In this document: positions 43,980-46,422 of the stretch, piece after piece
Layout of the letters: every line of letters begins with the position of its first letter
How positions within the stretch are numbered: the stretch's first letter is position 1
NCBI GenBank assembly: GCA_003244255.1
Contig: QHCD01000011.1
Coordinates: 46,043-110,042, forward strand
Origin: Pseudonocardiales bacterium
Lineage (GTDB): Bacteria; Actinomycetota; Actinomycetes; Mycobacteriales; QHCD01
DNA length: 64,000 nucleotides
Direction: 5' to 3'
Made by a program: the position numbers and the translations under genes
The notes under the pieces: generated by a model
Database searches by the model: none
Seen by the model: the letters and a program-made list of their open reading frames with translations, nothing else
Told to the model about the DNA's origin: nothing

Positions 43980-45058
43980 CGCGTTGCCTCCTGCGTCGTG
44001 GACGGTGCTTCGGTACAGACTCGGGTCGGCGTAGCGGACAGCCGGGTGGATACGCAGCGCAGCTCTACCTCGATGCTGCGGCCCGCGGCGACCTCGACGG
44101 GCGCCGGGAACGGCAGGAACGCCTGCATCCAGTGGGTGGCCGTGTTGTCCGGCGTCGTTCGCAGCACAACACCGGCGCCGAGGTCGAGCTCGAACCAGGC
44201 GACGACGGCGTGCGCGGTGCCCGATGTCGTCGGCTCGAAGGACACCGACCGGTTCTGCTGCTCCGGGACGTCGCGGGTGAAGTCGAAGGACAGCAACTCG
44301 ACCGGCGCGGACAGCGCGCAGTGGGGCCAGGTCGCGAGCCGGGTCGGGAAGTGCCCGTGCGTCGCGAGCGCGTTCATCAGCGAGACATCGAAACCGCACG
44401 CGACCTCGACGTGGTTCAGTCGCTGCACCGCGGAGGATTCCATCAGCTGGCCGTAGAGCTTCGCGCCCTGCGGCAGGATGGTGCCGTCGGGCGCGAGCAG
44501 CTCTCTGCGAGCGTGCCGGATCGACGGCAGGATGCCCTCGCCAACCAGTCCGCAGTCGACGATCTCGGAGATCACCATGTCGGCGGGTGTGGCGATCTCC
44601 CGACCGATTTCGATCGCACTGGAGTGCGTCGCCAGCACCGTGATCCGATCGGTGAGTCCCTGGGTGTCGATGATCTGGCGGGCGACCTCGGCCAGCAGCG
44701 GGTTCGCCTCGCACGTCGTGACCCGACCGGCACCGGCCCGGGCCGCGGCGAGCGCGAGCAGTCCGCTGCCCGAGCCGATGTCGAGGACATGCGAGCCCGG
44801 CACGACCTGCCGCTCGAGCGCCGTCGCGTAGGCATCGTTGCGCTCTCGGTCGTTCAACATCGAGAAGTGCCAGCGCGGAATGACGTTGGCCGCCAGGGCG
44901 CCGAGTGTCGACTGGTCGACCGTGCCGCTGGCGATGGCGTCGACGGCCGCGCGAGTGGACGTCACGAGTTCCTCGATGCGCGCGAGCTGGGCGCGGACGC
45001 CAGCGGCCGCGAGCCGCTCGTACGACGTCGTCGCAGAGAGCGGCCGAGACATGGTCAT
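43976..45058 (-). CDS. PRMT-fold (protein arginine methyltransferase-like, SznE-like) SAM-dependent N-methyltransferase
   Basis: 360 aa. Motifs: WHFSMLNDRERNDAYATAL, motif I VLDIGSGSGLLALAAARAG, post-I VTTCEAN, double-E loop ISEIVDCGLVGEGIL, and THW loop NTATHWMQAF. The start shares one nt with the NRPS stop. Confidence 0.85.
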   Translation of the reverse strand: MTMSRPLSATTSYERLAAAGVRAQLARIEELVTSTRAAVDAIASGTVDQSTLGALAANVIPRWHFSMLNDRERNDAYATALERQVVPGSHVLDIGSGSGLLALAAARAGAGRVTTCEANPLLAEVARQIIDTQGLTDRITVLATHSSAIEIGREIATPADMVISEIVDCGLVGEGILPSIRHARRELLAPDGTILPQGAKLYGQLMESSAVQRLNHVEVACGFDVSLMNALATHGHFPTRLATWPHCALSAPVELLSFDFTRDVPEQQNRSVSFEPTTSGTAHAVVAWFELDLGAGVVLRTTPDNTATHWMQAFLPFPAPVEVAAGRSIEVELRCVSTRLSATPTRVCTEAPSTTQEATR

Positions 45059-46422
45059 CAGCGGTGCCCTCCTGCCGTGCCGACCAACTGCAGCTGCTCG
45101 TTCGCCGTGGCCTCTGCCTCATCGGGCGTCGCCGCCATCTCGGCCCCTGGCGTTGCGTCCGACAACGCATCCTCCATGTATCGCAGGGGCTTGTAGCGCA
45201 TACCGAGTGCCGCCCAGATGAGTAGCGAGATCCCGCAGGCCGCGACGACCAGGCCGATGCCGCGGCCATCGCCGACGCCGAACAGGTGACCGACGAAGGT
45301 GTTGGACAGGGCGCCGTGCTTGCCGAGCAATGGGTTGACCGCGTGCACGATGAACGGTGCGCCGAGGTAGGCGACGGGCGTCATCGCGAGCGCCATCATC
45401 TGGTTCGCGGCCAGCACCCGGCCCTGCAGCTCGGTGTGCACCTTGACCTGGATCAGTGCGCGCCAGTGGGCATTGACCAGGTTGCTCGCGGCGTTGCGCA
45501 TCAGGATGCCGATCGACACCAGCAGGATCGACGGTCGCAGGCCCATCAGCAAGATGCCCAACCCGACGAAGTAGACCATCCCGACCATGCCGCTGGCGCG
45601 GCGGCGGGTGCCGCCCCACAGCATCATGAGCACCGAGCCGAGGATGGCGCCGACGCCCGCGACTCCGGTGACGACGCCGACGGCAGCCGCGCTGTTGAAG
45701 GCGAACACCAGCGGCACCGTCAGGACGATCGCGAGGGCACCGAAGAAGTTGTCGACGAGGAAGAACCCGGCCATCACGACGAGCGGCTTGCGCTTGGCCA
45801 TGTAATGCCAGCCGCCAGCGATCGTCTTGCGGAACGACTCCTCCGGCTTGGAGTACAACCGATTCGGGAACCGCACCTTCACCAGCGTGAGGATGCCGAC
45901 GGCGAAGGAGAAGGCGTCGATCGCGATCACACCGGGCAGGCCGACCAGGAGCAGCAGCGCGCCACCGGCCAGCGGCGCGACGACGTTGCCGAACCCGTCA
46001 CCGAGCTGCGCGATGCCGTTGGCCTGGGCGAGATAGGGCTTGGGCACGAGTTGCGCGGTCGCGGCGATGTAGGTCGGGTCGTGGACGCCGGTCGCGAGGG
46101 CCAGCACGATGACGATGACGCAGATGTTCCACAGCGTCAGGGTGTGCGTGGAGGCGAGGGCGATCAGCGCGACGACGCTGATGCCACCGGCGACCTCGCA
46201 GCCGAGCAGCACCAGCCTGCGGTCGATGCGGTCGGTGAGCGCGCCCCCGACCGGCCCGACCACGACCCGGGGCACCAGCGACAGGAACGTGATCAACGCA
46301 TACGAGCTGAGGTTGCCGGTCTCCTTGTAGACCCACAGTCCCAACGCGAACAGGGTGAGCGTGCTGCCCATGATCGAGATCGTCTGGCCGGCAGCAACCA
46401 CGTAGAAGTCACGCAGGTTACG
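45058..46422 (-). other. 12-TM MFS transporter domain fused in frame to the NRPS C-terminus
   Basis: 454 aa follow the TE with no stop. They begin FYVVAAGQTISIMGSTLTLFALGLWVY...LTDRIDRRLVLL (MFS_3/EntS-like loop motif), and I counted 12 hydrophobic segments by eye. Confidence 0.8.

Follow-up and report, generated by a model that had tools for sequence, protein, structure and literature searches.

We analyzed a 64,000-nucleotide stretch of DNA from a Pseudonocardiales bacterium (assembly GCA_003244255.1, contig QHCD01000011.1, positions 46,043 to 110,042 of the forward strand), hereafter the window, in which a single gene encodes the end of a non-ribosomal peptide synthetase (NRPS), its thioesterase (TE) domain and, in the same reading frame, a transporter of the major facilitator superfamily (MFS). 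The gene lies on the minus strand, and its open reading frame (ORF) occupies 53865..45058, 2935 codons from the first GTG; residue numbers of the fusion protein count from this GTG 53865. Pfam gave the domain order C-A-T-C-A-T-TE-MFS (C, condensation; A, adenylation; T, carrier), i.e. two NRPS modules, with two Condensation, two AMP-binding and two PP-binding domains and a Thioesterase domain at amino acids (aa) 2215-2442, all far above the cut-offs. The core motifs HHxxxDxWS, FTSGSTG, NGKVDR and GG[HD]SF were found, which identifies the C-A-T-TE portion as an NRPS termination module. The features of the gene are as follows.

45058..53865, minus strand: whole ORF, C-A-T-C-A-T-TE-MFS, with the stop codon TGA at 45060-45058
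52255..53523, minus strand: condensation domain 1, with HHIAIDDWS at 53122-53148
50686..52197 (approximate limits), minus strand: adenylation domain 1, with the hand-derived code DSTMIGHVSK
50443..50631, minus strand: carrier domain 1, with GGHSF at 50548-50562
49096..50373 (approximate limits), minus strand: condensation domain 2, with HHVATDAWS at 49972-49998
47554..49014, minus strand: adenylation domain 2 (Pfam core through A10 motif NGKVDR), with the code DLTMVAHVAK
47395..47409, minus strand: phosphopantetheine site of carrier domain 2, located by its motif GGDSF
46540..47223, minus strand: thioesterase with a Cys nucleophile; GHCVG at 46990-47004, Asp in VGERDRGT at 46627-46650, His in AGHYF at 46540-46554
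46438..46539, minus strand: TE-to-MFS linker of ∼34 aa, from the end of AGHYF to the first transmembrane (TM) helix of the model, TM1; stop-free
45196..46437, minus strand: MFS domain with 12 TM helices; GALTDRIDRR at 46216-46245, APLAGG at 45961-45978, WGGTRRR at 45598-45618
45061..45195, minus strand: cytoplasmic C-terminal tail, with the RYKPLRYMEDALSD motif and, after it, a predicted helix

The real start of the gene is more likely TTG 53649 than GTG 53865. This TTG is the first in-frame start after the TGA of the upstream NRPS gene, which lies 23 nt before it and overlaps the alternative frame opened by GTG 53865, and it gives a protein of ∼2863 aa. The choice of start codon leaves the fusion observation unaffected.

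The TE and MFS domains lie in one continuous ORF without a stop codon between them. This arrangement had been proposed in a sequence-only reading of the same DNA, which assigned 45058-46422 to the transporter, and this stretch corresponded exactly to the last 454 codons plus the stop codon of the fusion ORF. The ORF translation, the domain order and the third-position GC content (GC3) all bore out the proposal. GC3 was 0.80-1.00 in the fusion frame over 48255 to 45105, spanning the TE, the linker and the MFS domain, and the signal changed frame only past the stop codon of the fusion gene, where the next gene begins. Because GC3 was unbroken in one frame, there is no signal of a hidden frameshift at 46380-46480, and the junction DNA at 46380-46560 contained neither a stop codon nor a convincing internal ribosome-binding site with a start codon.

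The same architecture recurred far beyond the window. A scan seeded with TE peptides over 185,579 genomes, one per species, gave 419 confirmed stretches, and the best 79 of these (loci L001-L079) each covered essentially the whole 780-aa TE-MFS query. TE and MFS shared one stop-free ORF in all 79 loci (ORFs of 1772-3493 codons), which came from at least 20 actinomycete genera; these included Dactylosporangium, Nonomuraea, Kitasatospora, Streptosporangium, Microbispora, Amycolatopsis, Planomonospora and Micromonospora, together with other actinomycetes. The nearest relative, at 80% identity, was L001, a metagenome-assembled genome of the Mycobacteriales. At least 15 proteins with both Thioesterase and MFS domains, at 37-82% identity, came up when the TE-MFS piece was used in a word-index search, and an exhaustive HMMER search of 1.84 billion protein representatives with the MFS domain alone returned 936 matches at E ≤ 1e-30. 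In 73 of the 143 best near-full-length matches from this MFS-only search, the MFS domain was the C-terminal part of a protein 0.8-4.7 kaa long, and every TE-bearing fused match had its TE directly N-terminal to the MFS domain.

In a neighbour-joining tree of the MFS domains, one split united 70 of the 74 fused domains with nine "free" ones, several of them obvious fragments. The fusion therefore looks old and essentially of single origin, and the MFS domain of the window grouped with the NRPS-fused domains. Compared with L001, the ratio of nonsynonymous to synonymous substitution rates (dN/dS) was 0.18 for the TE, 0.18 for the MFS domain and 0.32 for the linker. These data demonstrate that the fusion is real and selected: it was in frame in 79 of 79 loci, was present in about 73 protein representatives and is under purifying selection.

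With its TE and MFS in one ORF and its MFS domain inside the NRPS-fused clade, the window protein belongs to this fusion class. The domain-architecture search that the sequence-only reading had called for thus returned NRPS/TE/MFS fusions widely, and its description of the architecture as uncommon proved overstated, since the class recurs across many actinomycete genera and full-length members already carry the NCBI product name "non-ribosomal peptide synthetase/MFS transporter." The class is known to annotators; the window protein is a two-module, SznEF-associated new member of it. A typical cluster of the family consists of A-T-C-A-T plus C-A-T-TE-MFS (L051, L080). In L080 (1-14041), from a metagenomic genome, such a two-gene NRPS with TE-MFS lies between genes for a Pup ligase and an ARC/Mpa AAA ATPase; a link of the family to the Pup-proteasome system was rejected, as Pup-ligase and ARC homologues occurred in at most 2 of 81 loci, a coincidence. 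Variant architectures were also seen near the same MFS subfamily (proteins P0072, P0110, P0117, P0119, P0130, P0140, P0146 and P0182): TE-MFS-methyltransferase, T-TE-MFS-A, in which the MFS is internal and a further adenylation domain follows it, and an N-terminal fusion of MFS to MacB/FtsX-type permease domains.

Two separate genes could be mistaken for a fusion if an error in sequencing or assembly had erased the stop codon or frameshift that divides them, and some public assemblies do split members of the family into pieces annotated "MFS transporter" (P0005 and P0012). However, P0005 is broken within its TE and P0012 within its A domain, with the TE-MFS junction intact, and TE and MFS were in one frame in all 79 independent loci, with GC3 periodicity continuous through the junction of the window. 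The hidden sequencing error against which the sequence-only reading had guarded is therefore excluded with near certainty. The sources of P0005 and P0012 are a complete genome (13.9 Mb) and a metagenome contig (2 Mb); the breaks may be assembly frameshifts, possibly derived from long reads, and we rejected the two entries as natural TE-less forms because both are pieces of frameshift-split NRPS genes. Members in L081 (Dactylosporangium sp. NBC_01737) and L080 (an ENA contig) were likewise split by frameshifts into several ORFs, and their 3′ piece was annotated simply "MFS transporter"; thus, the fusion is hidden from annotation-based counts.

The membrane part has the fold and motifs of a transporter, including those on which the MFS transport cycle depends. 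Pfam matched MFS_1 at aa 2491-2825 (E = 1.8e-29, 103 bits vs a cut-off of 33.4) and MFS_3 at aa 2521-2825 (E = 5.6e-14, 51.9 bits vs 27). An AlphaFold model of the last 780 aa (pLDDT 85.6, pTM 0.84) consisted of an alpha/beta-hydrolase, 12 long helices and a C-terminal helix, in agreement with the 12 hydrophobic segments counted from the letters, and the loop motif LTDRIDRRLV reported there is present as GALTDRIDRRLV, aa 2541-2552, in the TM2-TM3 loop. The 12 TM helices and motif A, G-x-x-x-D-R-x-x-R-R, in loop 2-3 are those of the DHA3/MFS_3 branch. When lysines and arginines in the loops were counted with the N-terminus inside, 27 fell inside and 4 outside; this topology places the TE on the cytoplasmic face, which fits its need to receive the carrier domain. 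Foldseek matched the membrane part to MdfA and NorA, and a sequence search of the PDB with the MFS domain gave no match at E ≤ 0.01.

Conservation within the domain bears on whether the MFS transports at all or merely places the synthetase at the membrane, e.g. for organisation of the assembly line or access to a lipid substrate. Membrane localisation of an NRPS can matter in itself, as tethering by CesCD is essential for cereulide synthesis (PMC7527721) and Pls-type synthetases are integral membrane NRPSs (PMC8117764). An anchor, however, does not need 12 helices or the residues that we found invariant in 16 fusions of 38-81% identity to the window protein: the motif A residues G, D, R, R and R, a WGG..R loop in the second half, a motif-C-like GxxxAPLAGG and several intrahelical polar residues. 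Moreover, the dN/dS of the MFS domain equals that of the catalytic TE, which argues for a working transporter over a mere anchor, and we consider a role in anchoring or scaffolding alone quite improbable. The C-terminal tail after TM12 contained a conserved RPLRxMEDxLPDA followed by an amphipathic helix. The tail motif LEDxLPDA was rejected as specific to fusions, since it also occurred in 14 of 64 free-standing relatives; it is therefore a trait of the subfamily and not a fusion-specific docking element.

The top NCBIfam families for the MFS domain were TIGR00900 (2A0121 H+ antiporter), the Mef macrolide pumps and EntS, and by this kinship the domain belongs to the DHA3/EntS/Mef exporter neighbourhood. 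Transport in the opposite direction would make the MFS an importer that supplies a building block or a metal-loaded product to the attached synthetase, as in LplT-Aas fusions. In favour of this, the MFS part weakly matched (E = 2.3e-8) NF006386, the model of a fused 1147-aa acyl-ACP--phospholipid acyltransferase, in its MFS region; we take this region to be LplT, feeding its attached enzyme. The match, however, scored 32 bits against a cut-off of 1221, the nearest named families are efflux proteins (TIGR00900, Mef, EntS), and the MFS is joined to the releasing domain, the TE, rather than to a loading domain. Import is accordingly very unlikely.

We also considered whether fusion secures co-expression only. 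The MFS would then be a pump for self-resistance or general efflux that was joined to the last NRPS gene, receives nothing directly from the TE and would serve equally as a separate protein. Sibling NRPSs with a homologous TE do have a separate MFS gene. In L082, one at 11001-12278 overlaps the stop codon of an unfused C-A-T-TE NRPS with a Ser-TE, and in L083 another at 5381-6685 lies just upstream of an unfused C-A-T-TE NRPS with a Cys-TE; overlapping gene pairs can fuse by trivial loss of a stop codon, and the length of the TE-to-MFS linker varies across the family. On the other hand, the NRPS-fused MFS domains fall into what is essentially a single old clade, in which the fusion has been kept across many genera. 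The linker, which includes the last TE helix and leaves an inter-domain loop proper of ∼24 aa, is partly conserved among fusions (WxAGxxPxxV) and has a dN/dS of 0.32, and the high pTM of the model suggests a defined arrangement of the domains. As split "Rosetta-stone" orthologues, both separate genes were rejected: the L082 MFS is non-homologous to the fused domain, and the L083 MFS_3 gene showed 24% identity over half its length. No split TE/MFS orthologue pair was found among the related loci inspected. Taken together, these results make co-expression as the sole basis of the fusion unlikely.

The TE of the fusion carries a cysteine nucleophile, Cys2290 in GHCVG (aa 2288-2292), which was invariant in 16 of 16 aligned fusions and, with one exception, was present in the TE-bearing representatives from the MFS-only search. 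Its closest solved relative was ObiF1 (PDB 6n8e; E = 6e-37, 131 bits vs 57 for the next), with whose triad the Cys, Asp and His positions align, and Foldseek ranked ObiF1 first (32% identity) and the SulM TE second. With Cys at the nucleophile elbow, the His, an Asp on strand 6, and ObiF1 and SulM closest in both sequence and fold, the domain is a cysteine TE of the ObiF/SulM type. ObiF1 is the obafluorin synthetase, whose Cys-TE forms a beta-lactone, and the SulM TE forms a beta-lactam. The Gln-Cys-Asn motif of SulM is absent from the fusion TE, which has His-Cys-Val in its place. We rejected the Cys nucleophile as exclusive to fused proteins, as the unfused C-A-T-TE proteins P0022-P0034 and ObiF1 also carry GHC, while in the closest sibling clade that lacks the fusion (P0021, P0233-P0239) the motif is GHS, i.e. 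serine. Because Cys-TEs occur also without an MFS and the sibling clade has Ser, Cys and fusion are associated and not exclusive.

The terminal A domain has the code DLTMVAHVAK, and ∼58 of 69 alignable related loci fit the family pattern DLT[ML][IV]AHV[SA]K (codes were read manually at motif anchors, with no GrsA sequence as reference). The code is thus conserved alongside TE-MFS, so that the conserved unit is the whole termination module plus the exporter: TE, MFS and terminal A-domain code travel together as one cassette that ends assembly lines of different length. The Cys nucleophile, the kinship with ObiF1 and the family-wide A-domain code are new points beyond the sequence-only reading. 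Both A domains of the fusion protein have AAD[SL]G in place of the usual FDxS core motif.

The genes that flank the fusion on the minus strand are listed below.

53672..64000, running off the window, minus strand: upstream NRPS gene, with at least 4 A, 3 C and 4 T domains visible; TGA at 53674-53672
43976..45058, minus strand: PRMT-type arginine methyltransferase, SznE-like; start ATG at ∼45057-45055, within a few bases of the TGA of the fusion gene (TGATG)
42567..43979, minus strand: SznF orthologue with a cupin and a haem-oxygenase-like diiron domain, matching PDB 6m9r over its full length (E = 7e-177)
42082..42570, minus strand: small Rieske [2Fe-2S] protein, whose gene closes the apparent operon

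The SznF orthologue with an arginine N-methyltransferase gene directly upstream points to a szn-type N-nitrosourea pathway at this locus; the Rieske protein may be an electron donor. SznE/SznF chemistry yields an N-methyl-N-nitrosourea amino acid, and the presence of an NRPS together with apparently true sznE and sznF orthologues suggests a peptide with an N-nitrosourea. In tblastn searches, the SznE/SznF/Rieske trio followed the fusion gene in only 1 of the 79 loci, that of the closest relative (L001, 2413-5314). Co-occurrence with SznF-like genes, on which the sequence-only reading had advised a check, is therefore not a property of the architecture; a tie between fusion and SznF as a general rule was rejected, and the NRPS-SznEF combination is specific to this lineage.

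No other transporter gene was found in the visible part of the cluster, at 40-64 kb in the window, and 1-40 kb holds housekeeping genes. Among the latter, 28 kb from the cluster, is a free-standing MFS_1/MFS_3 gene (15822-17297, plus strand), and a truncated 195-aa MFS fragment (32759-33346, plus strand) adjoins a DUF222 gene (33216-34718). Convergent to the operon, 39539-42196 (plus strand) encodes an ECF sigma factor, a zf-HC2 anti-sigma factor, a molybdopterin oxidoreductase (MsrP-like) and a cytochrome b561 (MsrQ-like), which may form a module for repair of oxidative damage to the envelope beside a cluster for a nitrosating compound.

Taken together, the conservation of the fusion, the equal purifying selection on TE and MFS, the N-in topology, and the exporter kinship with motif A make membrane anchoring and release beside the exporter the natural reading. 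The lack of a second transporter gene in the visible part of the cluster also speaks for this reading, and the cereulide NRPS, tethered to the membrane by its exporter CesCD, is a functional precedent. We consider it probable that the cytoplasm-facing Cys-TE frees the peptide beside the proton-coupled 12-TM exporter of the DHA3/MFS_3 type to which a short linker joins it in one polypeptide; here we infer in which direction the MFS transports, what it carries and whether the TE hands the product over directly. The upstream NRPS and the fusion protein would assemble a peptide on at least six modules, and at this locus the peptide would probably bear a SznE/SznF-derived N-methyl-N-nitrosourea residue. 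The carrier domain would pass the finished peptide to Cys2290 of the TE at the cytoplasmic mouth of the exporter, hydrolysis or cyclisation would free it at the membrane surface, and the attached proton-coupled MFS would pump the freed product out. Covalent fusion would fix a 1:1 stoichiometry and shorten the lifetime of the product in the cytosol.

The sequence-only reading had explained the architecture by a product that is reactive or toxic to its producer. This rationale is plausible here because of the true SznF orthologue downstream and the ObiF-type Cys-TE, but most members of the family lie in plain two-gene clusters without such tailoring genes; the SznEF context supports the idea of a reactive product locally and is not the reason why the architecture exists. 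We regard as doubtful a stronger form of the coupling, in which the Cys-TE makes a strained or reactive product (e.g. a C-terminal beta-lactone on an N-nitrosourea peptide) and channels it from its exit tunnel into the inward-open MFS cavity, so that it never equilibrates with the cytosol.

Several points weigh against release beside a dedicated exporter. Unfused relatives work with a separate, unrelated MFS, as in L082, so this chemistry can do without the fusion. The MFS domain fell below the curated cut-offs of all three best families, Mef included (178.4 bits vs 319.6 for TIGR00900 and 68.4 vs 324 for EntS, NF007792), i.e. outside equivalog membership, so that its substrate class is not readable from homology. 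The alignment under the AlphaFold model comprised 16 sequences only, and the cluster extends upstream beyond the window, where more transporter genes may lie. In the literature, searched as full text with incomplete coverage, we found no paper on NRPS-MFS fusions, only statements on gene neighbours or on unrelated fusions, and no experimental report of transport, substrate or membrane localisation for any member of the family.

Few cases are known in which the release of non-ribosomal peptides is physically coupled to their exit from the cell, and these, such as CesCD and the pyoverdine "siderosomes," depend on non-covalent tethers. The TE-MFS family offers a covalent and genetically simple model for such coupling, and its smallest clusters, of two genes (A-T-C-A-T plus C-A-T-TE-MFS), are of a size suited to heterologous expression. 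Given the ObiF-like Cys-TE, the products may be reactive electrophiles, which would be of interest in pharmacology. If it is indeed made at this locus, a peptide with an N-nitrosourea warhead would be a new compound class, and a self-exporting termination module, if confirmed, would be a useful part for engineered assembly lines.

The closest known systems are the proteins that NCBI names "non-ribosomal peptide synthetase/MFS transporter," with examples in Nonomuraea, Actinoplanes, Acrocarpospora, Herbidospora and Amycolatopsis vastitatis (P0192, P0202, P0217, P0223-P0225). Like the window protein, they have a C-terminal T-TE(Cys)-MFS with motif A, at 37-57% identity over the 780-aa TE-MFS region; the terminal A-code comparison was made on genomic loci L001-L079 and not on these proteins. 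They are mostly single-module C-A-T-TE-MFS proteins of ∼1750-1850 aa in two-gene tripeptide clusters, whereas the window protein has two modules and stands after an NRPS of at least four modules and before sznE/sznF orthologues. ObiF1, from Burkholderia/Pseudomonas, was the only PDB chain to align end to end over C-A-T-TE; it is without a membrane domain and has a C-terminal MbtH-like domain instead, and its beta-lactone chemistry requires a beta-hydroxy amino acid. The DHA3/MFS_3 exporters (TIGR00900, Mef, EntS) share the 12-TM fold and motif A in loop 2-3 but differ in being free-standing proteins of ∼400 aa.

Peptidase-containing ABC exporters of the PCAT/AMS type (PCAT1, ComA, LagD) have a cytoplasmic cysteine hydrolase, N-terminally fused to the exporter, that carries out the last release or maturation step. 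The logic is the same as in the TE-MFS fusion, but PCAT combines a C39 peptidase with an ABC fold, handles ribosomal peptides and is driven by ATP. In Bacillus cereus, the exporter CesCD must tether the cereulide NRPS CesAB to the membrane, and synthesis depends on this tether (PMC7527721); there, in contrast to the fusion, the association is non-covalent, the transporter is of the ABC type and contact is made via C domains rather than the TE. The Pls-type synthetases of homopoly(amino acids) are integral membrane NRPSs of actinomycetes (PMC8117764). They differ from the fusion in that their six TM helices alternate with C-like domains, TE and MFS fold are both missing, and the membrane part, not recognisable as a transporter, belongs to the polymerase.

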